Below are positions 148 to 15,743 of a DNA stretch of 64,000 bases, one piece after another (the stretch's first letter is position 1; every line of letters begins with the position of its first letter). The translations under genes and the position numbers were made by a program. The notes below the pieces were generated by a model. It ran no database searches, had not been told where the DNA came from, and worked only from the letters and a program-made list of their open reading frames with translations. The DNA comes from an uncultured virus (IMG/VR IMGVR_UViG_3300032820_000002) (Duplodnaviria; Heunggongvirae; Uroviricota; Caudoviricetes), in IMG/VR virus record IMGVR_UViG_3300032820_000002; one strand, given 5' to 3'.

Positions 148-615
148 ATGATAGAAATCAAAGATAGTGTAAATGATTTTTTTAAATGGGTTAAAGGTTC
201 CAAGCTAGTTGAACTTAACAACATAGATGTATCAGAGGATCCTGTAAGACCGGAATTAACATTAAGTTTTAGAATTACACACGGTAGAAAAATATTTGGA
301 CTAAAATATAATAATGAAATTGAATCAATTGCTTGCGTTGCAATATGTCCTGAAATACCATATACGGTTAGAGAAATGGATTATATGTCAAGAATAGGTG
401 GTAAAATTGTAATAGCATATACGATATGGTCAAGAAAAAAAGGTGCAGGTAAAGAAATTGTTAAAAAAATAAACAAGTGGACAATAGAAAACAAGTATGA
501 AAGATTAGTAACATTGTCTCCATTAACACCGATGGCTACTCATTTTCATATTAGCAACGGTGCAAAACAAGTCCATATTAATGACGAAACTCAAAATTTT
601 GAATATACATTATGA
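148..615 (+). CDS. Small GNAT-fold protein resembling the malonyl-CoA decarboxylase C-terminal domain
   Basis: Motifs IAYTIWS..KGAGKEIV, LVTLSP and ATHFHISNGA resemble MCD motifs (FYSIS, TLSP, ARFHLGNGA). Confidence 0.55.
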   Translation: MIEIKDSVNDFFKWVKGSKLVELNNIDVSEDPVRPELTLSFRITHGRKIFGLKYNNEIESIACVAICPEIPYTVREMDYMSRIGGKIVIAYTIWSRKKGAGKEIVKKINKWTIENKYERLVTLSPLTPMATHFHISNGAKQVHINDETQNFEYTL

Positions 616-2384
616 TAGAAATTAAAGATCTTACTGTTAAAAACTTTATGAGCGTGGGTAATCAAACTCAAGCTATTGATTTTAATAAAGATCAACTAAC
701 GTTAGTGCTTGGCGAAAACTTGGATCAAGGAGGTGACGATACAGGAAGTCGTAACGGTACAGGAAAAACAACTATTATTAATGCATTAAGTTATGCCTTG
801 TACGGCCAAGCACTAACAAACATTAAGCGTAACAACCTTATTAATAAAACTAATGGTAAGGGGATGTTAGTTACGCTACATTTTGCAATAGAAGGAATAA
901 CTTATAGAATTGAACGAGGACGCGGACCCAACTTACTTAAATTTTTTATTAATAATCAAGAACAAGAGTTAATTGATGAATCACAAGGGGATAGTCGAAA
1001 AACTCAAGAAGATATTAATAAAATAATATCAATGTCTCATGATATGTTTAAGCATATTCTTGCTTTAAACACTTATACTGAACCTTTTTTAAGTATGCGT
1101 ACAAATGATCAGAAAGATATTATAGAACAATTATTAGGTATTACTATACTTTCTGAAAAAGCAGAAAAACTTAAAGACCAACTTCGTATTACTAAAGAAA
1201 CAATTACAGAAGAAAAAATAAAAATAAATGCAATAGAAACAGCTAATTCAAAAATTGAAGCTACTATTAAAAATTTACAAACTACCCAAAAAGCCTGGCT
1301 ATCAAAAAAATCTGAAGATATTAAAAAATTACAATCAGGTATTAATGAATTAGAACAATTAGATGTTGATGCAGAATTAAATTTTCATGAAAAATTAGGA
1401 AAATGGTCTGAACATAATAATAAAATTACAGCTCTTAAAAAAGAATTAAGCACACTAGAGCCTGCACTACAACGTGCTGACAAGTCTGTTGATAAAGTGT
1501 CTAAAGATATCGCAGGATTAGATAATGCAATATGTTATGCATGCGGACAAGAACTTCATGATGATAAAAAAGAAGAAATTTTATCTAAAAAAACTAAAGA
1601 ACTAGACGATGCAAAATTATATGCTCAAGAAATTAACGTAAAACTGTCTACTGTTGTATTAGACTTAGAAGAAATTGGCGACATTAATAAAAAACCAAAT
1701 ACTTTTTATGAAAGTATTAAAGAAGCATATGATCATCGGAGCAATGTTGATAATCTTAAACAATCTTTATTAAACAAAGAAGAAGAACAAGATCCGTATG
1801 AAAAACAGATAGAAGAATTAAAAACTGAAGCAATACAAGAAATTGATTGGGCAATTATAAACGAGCTTGATCTATTTAAAGAACATCAAGAATTTTTATT
1901 TAAACTTTTAACAAATAAAGATAGCTTTATTCGAAAGAAAATTATTGAACAAAATTTATCTTATTTAAATAATAGACTTGCTGGTTATCTTAATAAATTA
2001 GGTTTGGCACACCAAGTTTTATTTCTTAATGACTTAAATGTTGCAATTACGCAATTTGGACAAGATTTAGATTTTGATAATTTGTCACGAGGTGAACGGA
2101 ATCGATTAATTCTAGGATTAAGTTTTGCTTTCCGTGATGTCTGGGAAAGTTTATATCAACATATTAATTTATTGTTTATTGATGAATTAATCGATTCTGG
2201 AATGGATGCAGCAGGAGTTGAACACTCGTTGGCTGTACTTAAAAAAATGGGGCGCGAAAGAAAGAAAAATGTATTTTTAATTTCACATAAAGACGAACTA
2301 ATAGGAAGGGTTAATCATGTTATGAAAGTTATAAAAGAAAACGGCTTTACAAATTATGAAAATGATATAGAGATTATAGAATAA
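612..2384 (+). CDS. gp46: Recombination endonuclease ATPase subunit (T4 gp46 / Rad50-SbcC)
   Basis: Walker A RNGTGKT, coiled coil with CYAC zinc hook, signature LSRGE, Walker B LLFIDE, ISH motif. Confidence 0.95.
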   Translation: MIEIKDLTVKNFMSVGNQTQAIDFNKDQLTLVLGENLDQGGDDTGSRNGTGKTTIINALSYALYGQALTNIKRNNLINKTNGKGMLVTLHFAIEGITYRIERGRGPNLLKFFINNQEQELIDESQGDSRKTQEDINKIISMSHDMFKHILALNTYTEPFLSMRTNDQKDIIEQLLGITILSEKAEKLKDQLRITKETITEEKIKINAIETANSKIEATIKNLQTTQKAWLSKKSEDIKKLQSGINELEQLDVDAELNFHEKLGKWSEHNNKITALKKELSTLEPALQRADKSVDKVSKDIAGLDNAICYACGQELHDDKKEEILSKKTKELDDAKLYAQEINVKLSTVVLDLEEIGDINKKPNTFYESIKEAYDHRSNVDNLKQSLLNKEEEQDPYEKQIEELKTEAIQEIDWAIINELDLFKEHQEFLFKLLTNKDSFIRKKIIEQNLSYLNNRLAGYLNKLGLAHQVLFLNDLNVAITQFGQDLDFDNLSRGERNRLILGLSFAFRDVWESLYQHINLLFIDELIDSGMDAAGVEHSLAVLKKMGRERKKNVFLISHKDELIGRVNHVMKVIKENGFTNYENDIEIIE

Positions 2385-2590
2385 TGATTGAAGACGACAC
2401 ACATGATCTTCTTACTAAAGCATACTTAGAATATTTTAAAGCAAATGATGCTTTTGAATCTAGATTTTCACATCGAACTCATGCTGCAAGTCGAAAATGG
2501 TTACGAGAAATACGTAGACTTGCTAAAATTCGAATGGAAGAAATACACGCAACATATAAAATCAAGAAAGAGACTAAAAGAAATAGGTAG
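2384..2590 (+). CDS. Small basic helical protein, possibly histone-H1/Hc1-like DNA-binding
   Basis: 68 aa, coupled to gp46 stop (TAATG); Arg/Lys-rich AASRKWLREIRRLAK. Confidence 0.5.
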   Translation: MIEDDTHDLLTKAYLEYFKANDAFESRFSHRTHAASRKWLREIRRLAKIRMEEIHATYKIKKETKRNR

Positions 2591-2603: not shown

Positions 2604-3026
2604 ATGCATTGGACTTATAGGGGTAAATCAGTAAACGAATTACCTGAAGAATGCGAAGGCTTTGTTTATCTAATTACAAATCTTACCAACAATAAAAAAT
2701 ATGTAGGCAAAAAACTAGCAAAGTTTAAAACAAGCAAACCACCTCTTAAAGGTAAAATAAATCGAAGGCGTGGATACAAAGAAAGTGACTGGAAAGACTA
2801 TTGGGGTTCTAGTGATCATTTAAATGCAGATGTTTTAAAATTAGGCAAAAACAATTTTACTAGAGAAATTTTACATTATTGTCCTAGCAGAGGCGTTTTA
2901 AGTTATCTAGAGGCAAAGGAACAATTCGACCGTAAAGTATTAGAAACAGATGAATACTATAACGGTATTATTAACGTACGAGTAGGCAGTTCAAAAATTC
3001 TTACAGAACATCTAAAAAACTCATAG
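2604..3026 (+). CDS. GIY-YIG endonuclease (Seg-like)
   Basis: GFVYLITN..NKKYVGKK, YWGSS, REILH, E..EQ, YYN motifs; probable start ATG 2604 (MHWTY) rather than 2445. Confidence 0.85.
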   Translation: MHWTYRGKSVNELPEECEGFVYLITNLTNNKKYVGKKLAKFKTSKPPLKGKINRRRGYKESDWKDYWGSSDHLNADVLKLGKNNFTREILHYCPSRGVLSYLEAKEQFDRKVLETDEYYNGIINVRVGSSKILTEHLKNS

Positions 3027-3042
3027 GCAAGATACAGAACAC

Positions 3043-3320
3043 TGTTTGATCGAGGTTGCTCGATCCACCTTGAGGACATAGAATTCTATGTTCAGATGCT
3101 GGTGATGTTCAATAGGCTATATGCTCCTAAAAACCCTTTGCAGAGGAACGAAGCAAGGGATAGCGAGAATCTGCGATAGCAGTATTTTCGTAATGTCGAC
3201 GTAGGTTGGGAAAGGTCAGAGCCCGAGGAGCAAGTCAAATACCTACTTCCGATCTCGTCTATGCAAACTCACATGAAGCGAGAAGATGGAATCTAATAAC
3301 AGGTTCCGTCTGACTAAACA
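3043..3320 (+). ncRNA. Candidate large structured RNA with pseudoknot
   Basis: Non-coding, GC-enriched; at least 5 hairpins plus long-range pairs TGCTCCT/AGGAGCA, GTAGGT/ACCTAC, ATAGGC/GTCTAT; G-U pairs favour the + strand. Confidence 0.65.
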
Positions 3321-3380
3321 ATCTACATGAAACTTAACTGCTTTATTCAAATAAAAAGTGTTAGAGCAAAGCGAAAACAC

Positions 3381-3400
3381 AAATGAGCGTTAGCTCATTT
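3381..3400. terminator. Hairpin, probable bidirectional terminator
   Basis: AAATGAGC-GTTA-GCTCATTT perfect inverted repeat between convergent units. Confidence 0.55.
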
Positions 3401-3411
3401 ATAATATGTAA

Positions 3412-3612
3412 TTAATGTAAATCTGGATCACGACCAAAGCCTGCTCTTACTGTTGATGTTTTAACAATCTGATAAAAAAATTCGCCTTCCGGATCATTAC
3501 TTTTTAAATTTGCTATTGTAGGCATAATTTCTCCATAATCGTAGACATTACCCACTTCTTCTATAATTATTTGGTTAGGAATCCGCTTAAAAATTGTATA
3601 ATGTTCTTGCAT
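3412..3612 (-). CDS. Hypothetical protein (66 aa)
   Basis: Fills the gap; TTAAATA late-promoter-like motif just upstream on the minus strand. Confidence 0.6.
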   Translation of the reverse strand: MQEHYTIFKRIPNQIIIEEVGNVYDYGEIMPTIANLKSNDPEGEFFYQIVKTSTVRAGFGRDPDLH

Positions 3613-3640
3613 CGTAGAATTATTTAATTTATTTAATTCA

Positions 3641-3648
3641 TATAAATA
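3641..3648 (+). promoter_or_regulatory. T4-type late promoter TATAAATA
   Basis: Exact T4 late consensus. (N)NTAAATA also precedes genes at 6260, 10361, 15822, 17955, 20482, 28548, 37444, 44706, 45143, 60663, 63128 (+) and 60650, 63065 (-). Confidence 0.75.
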
Positions 3649-3680
3649 CTACTAGATAACTTTATGGATCATAATATACC

Positions 3681-5195
3681 ATGCAAGTAAAAGAAATTAC
3701 ACTCTACGAAGAAAAACAAAGACTAGACGAAGTATGGAATTGGGTACTAGTCGTGGCAGCGTATTTATGGCAAGGGGCTATGTTTGCAGGTGTTTCTTAT
3801 ATTACCATGGAAGGTATGACATTTATGGTTGATAAATGGCGGAAAGCAAATTTTAATCCTATTGCCGAAGCTATTCCTAATAAAATGAGAATGAAACTGC
3901 ATCTCCAAAAAGGGGATGCTGGATATGGTCGGACGGGCGTAAAGCCAAAATGGTTTCAATATAACGCATATAGTGGTAAATGGCATGAGGTCCGGCCGCC
4001 CACCAGCGTTTCGCCGTGGCGTCTTGTTAAAGGTGGAAGAGTACTCGTCGGAAACGGACTATACCTGCAGAGAGCATTGTGGGCGCAAAGCAAATTGTCT
4101 GGTTGGAAACGGATGCTTGGAATAAACACTTTTATAAACTTGAAGGGTATTAGTAAAGAAGCATGGCAAGCTGCTTATATAATGGCTAAAGCAGGCATGC
4201 AAAATGCTGGCGGGAAATATGCAGCTGGAGATGTAATTCCAGGAAAACCAGGCGTACTAGGTGATGATGGTAAAGACGGCACAGAGCGAAGAGCAAAGGT
4301 AGGAGATCCTGATGTTCGCGACGCAAGGTCAAAATATCCAGATTCTTTAGAGAAATACAAAAATTATATAAATCAAAGTAAAAAAGCAGCAGCTTGGGCA
4401 GCAGCTTCCAAATATATAGCAAAAATTGGTCCATGGCTAATGATGCTAGCGCCTTTAGGTTCTGCTTTGGGTATGGTTTATTGGGGCAGAGCTACTGCTC
4501 TAGCCTATTATGCTGAATTTGAAGAATGGGAAAAATGGAGGGATGCAGATAAAGAGACTCGAGGCCCGAAAGTGGGAATTACCTTAGAAGAATATACTGA
4601 AAGAATGATAGCTTATAGGGCAAGTATATTTGCTGTGTTTGTTGGTGGAACTGCAGGACTGGGGATATTGGGTGCAACTATGATTGTGAGTAACATAATT
4701 GGTAAAGGCCTTGGCATGGCAATCGACAAATTTACTTCAAAAGCTGACTTAGATAGCGCACTTGAAAAAGACTTTAAAAAACTTGGAAGAGCTGCAGGAC
4801 GAAATATACCAATAACGAGAGTAATAATATGGGTTGGTGCTATTGGCTTAATACCTTTATCAATGACTAGAACAGGACAAAGAGCGTTTGCATATCTTCT
4901 TACAGAATTTACATTTTTTGGAATGTTTGAAGACACTTATTGGGATAATCCAAATGGAGGCCTAAGATCAACTATAGCGACTTGGACTGACGGAGCATTT
5001 AAATTTATGCTTGAAAAATGGATTGGGGTGAATGCATACGATTGGTTTGGTAAAAATGCAATATTAAATCCAGAAGATCAATCAGCTTATCAAGCAGGAC
5101 TTAAAAATACAGAACTCCAGAACGATCTGAATAAAGGTAAGGTTCTGCCTGTAGACGAACTTGGTACCTTTTTCAAAGACAAGGCCGGTGATTAA
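3681..5195 (+). CDS. Hypothetical protein with hydrophobic helices; candidate internal/ejected virion protein
   Basis: 504 aa, late promoter upstream, N-terminus MQVKEI...RLDE followed by a hydrophobic segment; several further TM-like stretches. Confidence 0.55.
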   Translation: MQVKEITLYEEKQRLDEVWNWVLVVAAYLWQGAMFAGVSYITMEGMTFMVDKWRKANFNPIAEAIPNKMRMKLHLQKGDAGYGRTGVKPKWFQYNAYSGKWHEVRPPTSVSPWRLVKGGRVLVGNGLYLQRALWAQSKLSGWKRMLGINTFINLKGISKEAWQAAYIMAKAGMQNAGGKYAAGDVIPGKPGVLGDDGKDGTERRAKVGDPDVRDARSKYPDSLEKYKNYINQSKKAAAWAAASKYIAKIGPWLMMLAPLGSALGMVYWGRATALAYYAEFEEWEKWRDADKETRGPKVGITLEEYTERMIAYRASIFAVFVGGTAGLGILGATMIVSNIIGKGLGMAIDKFTSKADLDSALEKDFKKLGRAAGRNIPITRVIIWVGAIGLIPLSMTRTGQRAFAYLLTEFTFFGMFEDTYWDNPNGGLRSTIATWTDGAFKFMLEKWIGVNAYDWFGKNAILNPEDQSAYQAGLKNTELQNDLNKGKVLPVDELGTFFKDKAGD

Positions 5196-6316: not shown

Positions 6317-8626
6317 ATGGCTGACTCAGTTGTTACTCCTGAAATGTTTGAAAAGCTGTCTAAACAGGTTGCAAGTTTAGGAACTACTATATCAAAAACA
6401 GCCGGTGCTGCACAAGGTGCTGCTACAGGCTTTCTCGGTGCGGCTACACAATTTGCTACTGGCAAACCTGCTATTTCTGATACATTAACTGCAATAGGTG
6501 GTTTTGGCAAAAATCTAGCGCCTATTGTAAAACACCTTGAAAAACAAACAGGTATGTATCAACAGCTAACAAGAAGTGGTGTACATTTTAGTGGTAAAAT
6601 GGAAGTTGCATCTGAACTAGCAGTATCTGCTGGTTTAGATATGAAGCAATTTGGTGGAGTAGTTGAACAAAATTCTGAAGTATTTGCTGCAATGGGCGGC
6701 ACCGCACAAGCCGGTGCAACAGCATTTTTTACTCAATTAGAACAACTTAGAACAAGTGAACTTGGTGGGCAAATGCGAGCTTTGGGTATTAGTTATGAAG
6801 AACAAGCCGAAAACATGGCTATGATCCAAAATTTTGAAAATATGTCAATGCGCTCAACTAAAATGACAGAGCAGGAACGAAATGCTGCAACTTTGGCATT
6901 CAGTTCTGAACTAGATCTTTTATCAAAATTAACAGGTAAACAATCTGATGAACTGAAAAAAGGCATGTCTGAAATGCAAAGGGCAGGAGACTTTAAAGCA
7001 CTCCAAATGGACATGAGCGCAGATATGGCTACGGCATTAACAACAGGTGCTGAAGAAGCAAAGGGTGCAGGCATCGGCGACTTGTTTAAAGACATGATGA
7101 TAAGAGGATTTCCAAGCAAAGATCAGTCAAAACTAGCTGCATTGTATGGAAACTCTATGGCAGTTATGACAAAAATGAAAGCGGCGCAAGATAAGGGCAA
7201 TGTTCACGAATATAATAGATTAAAAGGTCAATTAGCAGCCGCAGCAATTCAAGATCAAATGGCTAATAAAGATCTTGCTAAATTAGGAGGTACCACTGCT
7301 GTTACTCAAATTGCAGCTCAAGCAATGGCAGATAGTGGCGCATATCATACTACTTTAAGAAATATGTATGCACAAAGAGCTAGAGAACTAGGTGTTGCAA
7401 TACTAAGTGCTGAAGAAGTAGAAAAATTAGAAGCAAAAGCTAGGGCTCAAGCGGTAAAATCCCGAGACGATCAAATAACAGAAGTACCACAGCAAGTAAT
7501 AGGAGTAATGATTGAAGCCCAAAATGAAATGGTTAATATAGCAGCGACAACACAAAAAGAAGCTACTGTAAGAATTTATGAGACAGTAGCAGAAGCAATG
7601 GGCGGAACTTTAGAAAAAATTAAAATTTGGGATCCTGCTGCTGAACTAGACAAAGGTATTAATGATGCTGCTGATTGGTTTCGAAACTTCTTTCAATTAA
7701 ATGCATCACAAGGTAGACAAGCTATTGGAGAAGCTGAAGCTGTAGGCAGAGGTGACATTGCAGCTCAATTACAAAGAAATGTAGATATACAAGAAACTGC
7801 CAGGGGTTCTTCTGATCCTGCCGACATAGCAGCATCTCAAACAGCAGCGGCAGAAAATGAGAAATTAAGGAGACAACTTGGTGCAGAAAAACAAAAAATT
7901 GCAGGTCAAGAGCCTCCTGGTCAAAATCTTCCTTCTATAAGTGAGAATATTTGGGGTGATCTCAAAGTAGTTCTTCAAGCTCTCTTAGAATTATTTAAAG
8001 GCAATGGCGCCGGTAGCCAATATGGTTCACCTGGTATGTCTAGAGCAGTTAGTGATCTTAGTTCATTAGCACAAAGTTGGGGAGGTGGAACATTTAATTT
8101 AATGCACGGCGAAGAAGCAGTACTAACCAAAGGTCAACTTGCAATGATTGATTCATCTTTTAACGAATTATTTGATAGAACTTCGTCATTTTCTTCTATA
8201 GCACAGCCTAAAGATCCAAACGCCGATCTAAAAAGATTAGGTATAGCTCCTACAATGGGTGCTATGCCATCCACCGGAACTAACAGTACTGATCTTCAAG
8301 GAGCGGTAAATACAATGTCAGCGCAGGACAGGCAGCGTTATATCATGCAGAATAAAGATCTTGCTCAATTAGGAGGTACTACTAGTACTACATCCGCAGC
8401 AGCAGATGCACTAGAATCAAGCAACAGTATGTCAGATTTACTAAGAGTAATGCATGAAATGAAAGATGCTTTAGCGACAGGTGATAATGAAGGATTTAAA
8501 GAAATGAAAAACTCTTTAAATGAAATGACGAAATTAGCACAAGTTCAAAATAGAATTGCTGGAAAACATTTGAAAGTAGGTAAAGGAATGGTTGGTGATA
8601 TTTTTGCAGGAGGACCTAGAGTATGA
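6317..8626 (+). CDS. Tape-measure-like protein
   Basis: 769 aa Ala/Gly/Gln/Met-rich helical sequence with C-terminal MHGEEAVL motif; next to hub chaperone. Confidence 0.65.
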   Translation: MADSVVTPEMFEKLSKQVASLGTTISKTAGAAQGAATGFLGAATQFATGKPAISDTLTAIGGFGKNLAPIVKHLEKQTGMYQQLTRSGVHFSGKMEVASELAVSAGLDMKQFGGVVEQNSEVFAAMGGTAQAGATAFFTQLEQLRTSELGGQMRALGISYEEQAENMAMIQNFENMSMRSTKMTEQERNAATLAFSSELDLLSKLTGKQSDELKKGMSEMQRAGDFKALQMDMSADMATALTTGAEEAKGAGIGDLFKDMMIRGFPSKDQSKLAALYGNSMAVMTKMKAAQDKGNVHEYNRLKGQLAAAAIQDQMANKDLAKLGGTTAVTQIAAQAMADSGAYHTTLRNMYAQRARELGVAILSAEEVEKLEAKARAQAVKSRDDQITEVPQQVIGVMIEAQNEMVNIAATTQKEATVRIYETVAEAMGGTLEKIKIWDPAAELDKGINDAADWFRNFFQLNASQGRQAIGEAEAVGRGDIAAQLQRNVDIQETARGSSDPADIAASQTAAAENEKLRRQLGAEKQKIAGQEPPGQNLPSISENIWGDLKVVLQALLELFKGNGAGSQYGSPGMSRAVSDLSSLAQSWGGGTFNLMHGEEAVLTKGQLAMIDSSFNELFDRTSSFSSIAQPKDPNADLKRLGIAPTMGAMPSTGTNSTDLQGAVNTMSAQDRQRYIMQNKDLAQLGGTTSTTSAAADALESSNSMSDLLRVMHEMKDALATGDNEGFKEMKNSLNEMTKLAQVQNRIAGKHLKVGKGMVGDIFAGGPRV

Positions 8627-15526: not shown

Positions 15527-15730
15527 GTAATGAGGACGCTCATTACACGGGTTGCAGGGAAGAGGTGTAGTCGAAGCACCGAACCTGGCTTGTCAGGGGT
15601 AGTACCCAGGGGCCTACTCGAAAGAGAACGGTTTCACATTGTGCCTACTAGCACAGGACAAGGCGTTGCCGCAAAATCGAACAAGGGATTTGGACGGCAG
15701 CTGGAGGTAATCCCAAGTCCTTCACCCACC
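15527..15730 (+). ncRNA. Candidate structured ncRNA (about 200 nt), stand-alone transcription unit
   Basis: GC-rich island between a sigma70 promoter and a terminator; multiple hairpins, a closing helix and two potential pseudoknots. Confidence 0.75.
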
Positions 15731-15743
15731 TTTTTTAGAAAGG

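Follow-up and report, generated by a model that had tools for sequence, protein, structure and literature searches.

An undescribed class of phage RNA with a guide-like code matched in cis

What does a large folded RNA do directly behind a nuclease gene in a phage genome, and do the two belong together? The question is raised by a stretch of 64,000 nucleotides from an uncultured virus (IMG/VR record IMGVR_UViG_3300032820_000002; hereafter the window), where a structured non-coding RNA (about 3035..3331, + strand, its ends set by conservation) follows a GIY-YIG nuclease gene. A preliminary description had proposed an undescribed, ribozyme-like RNA that might be a partner or guide of the nuclease, or might be linked to replication or recombination. 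We find that this RNA, here called type A, belongs to a real and undescribed class with a guide-like code in cis, that it is probably tied to replication or recombination, and that the nuclease is a neighbor rather than an obligate partner. The function that we propose comes from comparing sequences.

The window comes from a large T4-like phage. Its genes include a gp46/SbcC-like recombination nuclease subunit (612..2384, +; phrog_77, E 5e-93), a baseplate hub gene and a portal gene at 8623. A conserved 68-aa ORF (2384..2590, +) is found in most type A loci and matches neither Pfam nor PHROG. In relatives (six long contigs and cultured phages), gp46 belongs to an operon of late sigma factor, gp47 and gp46. 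The order in the six long relatives, whose gene names were transferred from cultured genomes, is late sigma factor, gp47, gp46, small ORF, GIY-YIG, RNA and a baseplate hub gene on the opposite strand, except that several genes separate gp46 from GIY-YIG in contig G007. Among cultured phages, PA5oct, Phosso, Atu_ph07 and 121Q-type jumbo phages have the nearest gp46 proteins (36-48%). GC skew switches sign about 5 kb upstream of the RNA, at a divergent gene boundary; it tracks the coding strand and therefore gives no origin signal. A 66-aa ORF (3412-3612, -) converges on the RNA, and short minus-strand ORFs of similar size lie there in several relatives. Farther along, at 15529-15733 (+), the window holds a manA RNA of Rfam (64.6 bits, over the gathering score), here in a jumbo phage that is not cyanophage-like.

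The RNA is clearly structured. The segment 3027-3400 folds better than its shuffled versions (z -5.39; 0 of 100 shuffles as good), with the single-sequence fold prediction itself being poor, and all 20 motifs of the preliminary description are present at their positions. An Rfam search of 2900-3700 gave no match at E<=10, and 20 homologue loci gave no intron or ribozyme match at E<=5; the type A RNA is thus without an Rfam family. Two interleaved helices had been proposed to form a pseudoknot. The first, TGCTCCT/AGGAGCA (3122-3128/3226-3232), covaries (MI-APC 0.56-0.81 in 92 sequences), and 104 of 105 homologues form at least 5 bp of it, compared with 55% when partners are swapped. The second, GTAGGT/ACCTAC (3201-3206/3241-3246), can pair in 30/30 aligned sequences, but it is nearly invariant and therefore shows no covariation within type A. 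Neither long-range pair proposed to close the domain is supported: ATAGGC/GTCTAT pairs as well with swapped partners (mean 3.68 bp) as with its own (3.72 bp, n=105), and TGTTTG/TAAACA is unsupported, with 3-6 bp in 11 sequences and no control.

Instead, the 5' junction domain (3037..3110) closes locally, through GAACA/TGTTC (3037-3041/3106-3110) and CACC/GGTG (3066-3069/3101-3104), which form at least 4 bp in 35/36 and 36/36 sequences, respectively, with visible compensatory changes; hairpins at 3048-3065 and 3074-3093 complete it. This domain is shared with sister types B and D, whose profiles match window positions 3022-3105 at E 1e-4 and 2e-5. The pseudoknotted core (3122..3250) adds to the two crossing helices an invariant pairing, GGAA (3145-3148) with TTCC (3247-3250), and three hairpins: 3134-3159 with an invariant GGAACGA loop, a variable one at 3163-3191, and 3208-3224. 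Next comes a loop, closed in the window by 3253-3257/3279-3283, that presents a 7-mer (copy 1, 3271..3277) behind an invariant ACTC. A terminal GC-rich hairpin (3284..3311) separates it from copy 2 (3325..3331), which stands behind an invariant ATCT (3321-3324). The doubling of ACATGAA at 3271 and 3325 had been remarked before; it proves to be the most informative feature of the RNA. No promoter-like site was found on the + strand ahead of the RNA in a scan of the window. A look-up of sequencing data returned six runs with a share of at most 0.13; the four examined were all contigs, in which strand and ends are not readable, and contig pieces from relatives cover 2728-3101 (X3), 2908-3048 (X4) and 2831-3271 (X1, its status as RNA data a guess).

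How widespread is this design? A scan based on the nuclease gave at least 600 stretches, and among the best 80, which were kept, 25 carry the type A core and a second core (type B) is found in 18; inspection by eye assigned 4 to type C and 7 to type D and saw no RNA in 19, the remainder being truncated or variant. Independent pattern scans for types A, B and C gave at least 120 matches each. Conservation of the type A RNA thus extends over 120 viral loci or more, and profiles tie types A-D together via the common 5' domain or the 3' module. The type B pattern had no match in bacterial genomes, and blastn searches of cultured phages with the type A and type B RNAs returned chance matches only. 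The 5' part of type C is Polynucleobacter-1 of Rfam, with 8/8 scanned loci scoring 63-118 bits (gathering score 37). That motif (RF01718; Weinberg 2010, PMC2864571), which spans only 141 nt, is thus the 5' domain of a sister type that also has the 3' repeat module; the window RNA does not match it.

The two copies of the 7-mer vary together. In 106 of 108 type A sequences the 7 nt behind ACTC are identical to those behind ATCT, and 11 different 7-mers occur. Identity is complete at positions 1-6, holds in 106/108 at position 7 (68.5 expected) and drops to chance at position 8 (50 against 48.9 expected). Among 74 anchored type B sequences, 64 match at 7/7, 3 at 6/7 and 7 scored 4 or less (28 more could not be anchored), and a foreign 7-mer matched in just 10 of 13,032 control comparisons; in type C the copies are identical in 85/91. 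Parsimony on trees of 259 sequences, built without the repeats, gave 88 and 86 steps for the two copies and 90 for both jointly, against about 174 if they were independent, figures biased towards agreement because the best candidate behind the motif was chosen as copy 1 and the B/C pairs in the test were limited to those matching at 6/7 or better. The two copies thus changed together about 86 times on the trees. In fact, six of the seven positions have changed in step, position 6 being an invariant A in types A-C, and the composition of the 7-mers is biased. One locus, L116, falls outside the anchored type A set and has a 10-nt repeat of its own.

The variable guide segment that the preliminary description had advised looking for therefore exists, but it matches the RNA's own 3' end. 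Types A and B hold no consistent reverse complement of the 7-mer on the RNA strand, and the simplest partner for copy 1 would therefore be the opposite strand at copy 2. Pairing of the copies with each other as palindromes was ruled out by variants such as ACAGAAA and GCCACAG, and a possible second block of coupled sequence (TGRC) ahead of each copy was unconvincing (in type B, AC/AC 20 and GC/AC 18).

Does the nuclease belong to this RNA? It is a stand-alone SegE-type GIY-YIG protein of 140 aa (2604..3026, +), matched at full length by PF19835 (SegE_GIY-YIG, E 4.7e-34); as the preliminary description noted, it has the catalytic domain only. Residues Y22, Y33, G35, K37, Y66, E103 and N120 are invariant, and the PF19835 match with the conserved Tyr, Glu and Asn places it in the GIY-YIG superfamily; its catalytic residues are intact. 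The predicted model (pLDDT 94) contains a basic beta-hairpin and has the I-TevI catalytic domain as top PDB match (E 0.13, prob 0.97). Over the closest loci it is 73-87% conserved, and a quick protein tree was poorly resolved. With the T4 Seg-type free-standing homing endonucleases it shares the PF19835 domain and I-TevI as closest solved fold, but it differs from them in being the catalytic domain only, at a fixed site and exchangeable with resolvases. This GIY-YIG family is named 'NAD synthetase' in PHROGs (phrog_447) and in many phage records, apparently a propagated misannotation.

Linkage was counted in loci with at least 1400 nt upstream, leaving out 47 (A), 55 (B) and 47 (C) shorter ones. 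Co-occurrence is near total in type A, where GIY-YIG lies upstream of the RNA in 72/73 loci, but looser in the sister subtypes. Type C has GIY-YIG in 64/65 and a resolvase in one; of the 73 type B loci, 52 have GIY-YIG, 8 only a PD-(D/E)XK resolvase-like gene, one has both and 12 have neither. Thus a resolvase or no nuclease replaces GIY-YIG in 21/138 sister loci (types B and C), and the position can also be taken by endonuclease VII or unrelated genes. In some loci GIY-YIG is divergent from the RNA, or another gene lies between them, and in 19 of the best 80 nuclease loci inspection by eye showed no downstream RNA. Phage Melnitz encodes the nuclease at 79% identity, after nrdB, and the RNA was not found in its whole genome. 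Conversely, with Melnitz as positive control, the PF19835 family is absent from the complete genomes of 121Q, XbC2, GAP32 and PA5oct, which carry related or candidate RNAs. The idea of an RNA partner or guide of the nuclease thus fails as an obligate tie: given its replacement in sister loci and Melnitz without the RNA, the nuclease is a neighbor in a shared slot. This slot, which other branch-cutting nucleases also fill, is probably that of the branch-cutting nuclease of the operon, and the interchange with resolvases suggests that GIY-YIG here resembles a housekeeping nuclease. A facultative interaction with the RNA may nevertheless occur. Measured against OMEGA-like systems, the locus has a variable guide, a matching target and an adjacent motif, but in cis only, and it lacks the obligate RNA-nuclease linkage. 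The sole type A locus without nuclease (L116, 998-1495) has a 166-aa ORF with no Pfam match above cut-off. In several type B loci (L055, L066, L072), short AGGCAC-like repeats stand just past the nuclease stop, ahead of the RNA.

Cultured phages carry a comparable design. At the syntenic site in 121Q, XbC2 and GAP32, an endonuclease VII-type or unannotated gene points away from a gap of about 800 nt, which in 121Q and XbC2 ends with a short repeat, a GC hairpin, AAYC and the repeat again, as in the 3' design of type A. Profiles do not link this Rak2-type RNA to type A (0/49 and 0/108), and we therefore infer homology from position and design. It matches in 72 phage records at 293 places, with 4-5 copies, tens of kb apart, in 10 of 11 genomes examined (the pattern gives 2 for RaK2). 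The copies are all on one strand; a reversed-pattern control gave 0, and one match in Kaldavass was false. The repeat matches over at least 5 nt in 47 of 50 rows, often with a mismatch at the first position, and a promoter-like site lies 290-495 nt upstream in 44 of the 50, a count that has no chance control. All Rak2-like genome copies carry a core GTCA or close variant. Yet paralogous copies within one genome (EJP2, Munch, Hallingskeid, GAP32) differ from each other and are matched in cis, which argues against one protein reading all sites.

The Rak2-type RNA also occurs in eight bacterial loci, mostly adjoining tyrosine or serine recombinases, with CI/Ner-type regulators and defence genes (Kiwa, Hachiman) as further neighbors. 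The 25 flanking island proteins scanned, a subset of those listed, include no initiator or primase; one island carries ParB-like partition proteins. Two Serratia copies that are 93% alike show the same base difference in both repeats, and the 121Q copy has no match in plasmids. The enterobacterial islands L586-L593 (recombinase, RNA, CI/Ner switch, defence genes) have the appearance of satellites of Rak2-like phages. At the syntenic site, Atu_ph07 and Vibrio phage 2.275.O have no such gap, and no clean repeat was found in Phosso, where the element was recognised by eye only, or in the syntenic PA5oct copy. In Phosso, an annotated RNase HI gene (L508 7774-8160) comes right after the syntenic gap and would fit primer processing. 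The syntenic PA5oct gap is related (E 1e-31) to ncRNA004 of that phage, which its description places at 246,116-246,734 with 0.02-0.08% of phage reads (PMC7318152, Table 1). CATAAG occurs there twice, and the annotated ncRNA004 ends on the final base of the second copy. Our RNA profiles do not match ncRNA004, however, and its kinship is therefore suggestive only. A third place related to it lies at about 12.9 kb (W03, E 1.6e-25), near but distinct from the published ncRNA001 and ncRNA002.

Behind copy 2 an A/T-rich tail (3332..3403) holds short hairpins at 3358-3380 and 3381-3400. Hairpin loops of the C-GNA-G and C-GNNA-G kind are especially stable in DNA. Such mini-hairpins are enriched in the 140 nt after the type A RNA (n=106), with 211 on the top strand against 18 in shuffled sequence and 87 against 16 on the bottom strand; types B and C show enrichment on both strands and the Rak2 group on the top strand only. 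In the window the first mini-hairpin is degenerate and the last tail hairpin is also terminator-like on the minus strand. Six marine contigs, which are 40-66% complete, and the window each yielded just one copy of the RNA, and neither profiles nor mini-hairpin clusters revealed further copies in the marine contigs. A mini-hairpin cluster at 63.9 kb of the window, considered as a second copy, was rejected since it sits in a coding region. In the type C genome G007, a non-coding stretch with such a cluster lies at about 10.9-11.3 kb (in the RNA-oriented contig).

To explain these results we propose that this RNA acts in cis by recognising its own DNA and, like RNA II of ColE1, forms an R-loop preprimer marking a replication origin, a reading to which we give an even chance. 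Within it, the identity of loop and copy suggests that the RNA grips its own DNA, most likely in order to start DNA replication. The RNA would be transcribed and fold. As the polymerase passed copy 2, the loop with copy 1 would pair with the template strand there, because this strand is the only nearby sequence complementary to copy 1; the pairing would hold the duplex open and start a persistent RNA-DNA hybrid. The RNA 3' end, or an end trimmed by RNase H, could then prime the leading strand, and the exposed downstream hairpins could load helicase or primase. GIY-YIG would be the last gene of the upstream recombination operon and not required. What we count for such a preprimer are the fold, the coupled copies, the mini-hairpins, the co-oriented Rak2 copies, the promoter-like sites and the islands that appear free of an initiator. 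What we count against it are the single copy in the marine contigs and the window, the lack of a gap in Atu_ph07 and Vibrio phage 2.275.O, and a conserved pseudoknotted core that exceeds the obvious needs of a preprimer. The last downstream hairpin may be no more than a terminator for the minus strand, and pairing alone does not explain the invariant A at position 6.

Could the RNA be a catalyst instead? Its invariant pseudoknotted core, and a 7-nt loop that is variable throughout and sharply bounded, would suit a self-guided ribozyme whose loop, like EBS1 of group II or the IGS of group I introns, keeps hold of the template strand, or of an antisense RNA that converges, while the core cuts or joins beside the 7-mer and yields a 3'-OH. 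Group IIC targets have a hairpin ahead of the target site, and group I introns a bulged-C consensus; on the template strand here a hairpin likewise precedes the 7-mer, and the crossing helices follow the P3/P7 order of group I, with a possible bulged C, seen by eye, before the G-C pair 3200-3201. A ribozyme is nevertheless unlikely, given that no Rfam intron or ribozyme match appears even at E<=5-10, that types A, B/C and Rak2 retain the 3' module although their cores differ strongly, and that the putative cut site has no invariant G-U. We are equally doubtful of its boldest form, a protein-free, self-programmed RNA initiator of a new ribozyme class, whose 7-nt loop would nick or join the template of its own gene to start replication. 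If true, jumbo phages would have several co-oriented sites of this kind, borrowed by satellite islands and retargetable via seven bases.

Other readings place the recognition in a protein or in the history of the locus. A common trans factor, either a protein dimer or another RNA, could bind both copies, the RNA being a scaffold or regulator like GOLLD or ROOL. The invariant A, the biased 7-mers and the GTCA core of the Rak2-like copies would fit it, but paralogues in one genome hold different cis-matched variants, nucleases 92-95% identical accompany different 7-mers, and six positions changed in step, so that we consider it quite improbable. More doubtful still is an RNA-guided GIY-YIG, in which the nuclease would bind the RNA and nick its own genome at ATCT plus 7-mer. 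That site does occur just 1-3 times per long contig, and the tight linkage in types A and C, the intact catalytic residues and the basic beta-hairpin would all fit; against it stand the type B loci with a resolvase only or neither nuclease, the divergent or separated genes, the nuclease loci and Melnitz without RNA, and the four genomes without the nuclease family. Finally, copy 2 could be flanking DNA captured at insertion of a mobile element, as a target-site duplication. Conservation indeed falls directly past the 7-mer, and the Rak2 type sits in several places and in islands. Copies at unrelated sites, however, keep nearly the same repeat and similar tails, and the marine element keeps to a single syntenic site even as its 7-mer varies, which makes an insertion footprint very improbable indeed.

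How does the preprimer reading compare with known systems? In ColE1 the G run sits in a distant loop. Published accounts of ColE1 state that in the RNA a stretch of rG has to interact with a stretch of dC in the template strand (PMC4412123) and that RNA II is about 550 nt long (PMC5043065). The phage RNA resembles ColE1 RNA II and the T4 oriF/oriG R-loop origins as a folded non-coding RNA of similar size with downstream single-strand signals; as for ColE1 (PMC4412123), an upstream segment is proposed to pair with the template near the RNA's own 3' end, here through a coupled direct repeat that predicts the pairing. It differs in having no sequence or Rfam similarity, a variable 7-mer instead of a G run, a home in jumbo phages with several copies, and an origin role that is predicted only. 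The newness thus concerns the RNA class; the likely working principle has a precedent in ColE1.

Guide RNAs and introns offer further comparisons. The crossing-helix order recalls P3/P7 of group I introns, but J8/7 and P8 differ from their consensus and neither an Rfam model nor P/Q/R/S elements were found; as noted early on, no gene is interrupted, the RNA lying between complete ORFs with varying neighbors. Group II EBS1-IBS1, HYER and the IS110 bridge RNA also use a short variable loop to specify a DNA or RNA site. Compared with these and with group I, however, the phage RNA has no Rfam match, no exons, no DV-like domain that we could see and no recombinase tied to it in phages, and its loop reads in the same sense as the 3' flank of the RNA itself, whereas intron guides are complementary to an exon. 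GOLLD and ROOL are likewise large, structured and phage-borne, but the phage RNA has no Rfam match; to our knowledge, a coupled internal repeat is not a feature of either. Searches of the open-access literature turned up only Polynucleobacter-1 and the PA5oct ncRNA list as earlier descriptions, and supplementary motif catalogues could hold fragments.

A freely varying 7-nt loop that tracks a same-sense site in cis over about 86 changes is unusual whatever its function. If the RNA proved catalytic, it would be a new programmable ribozyme acting on DNA. If the RNA marks an origin, it would account both for the co-oriented copies in Rak2-like jumbo phages and for the integrase islands without a replication protein.
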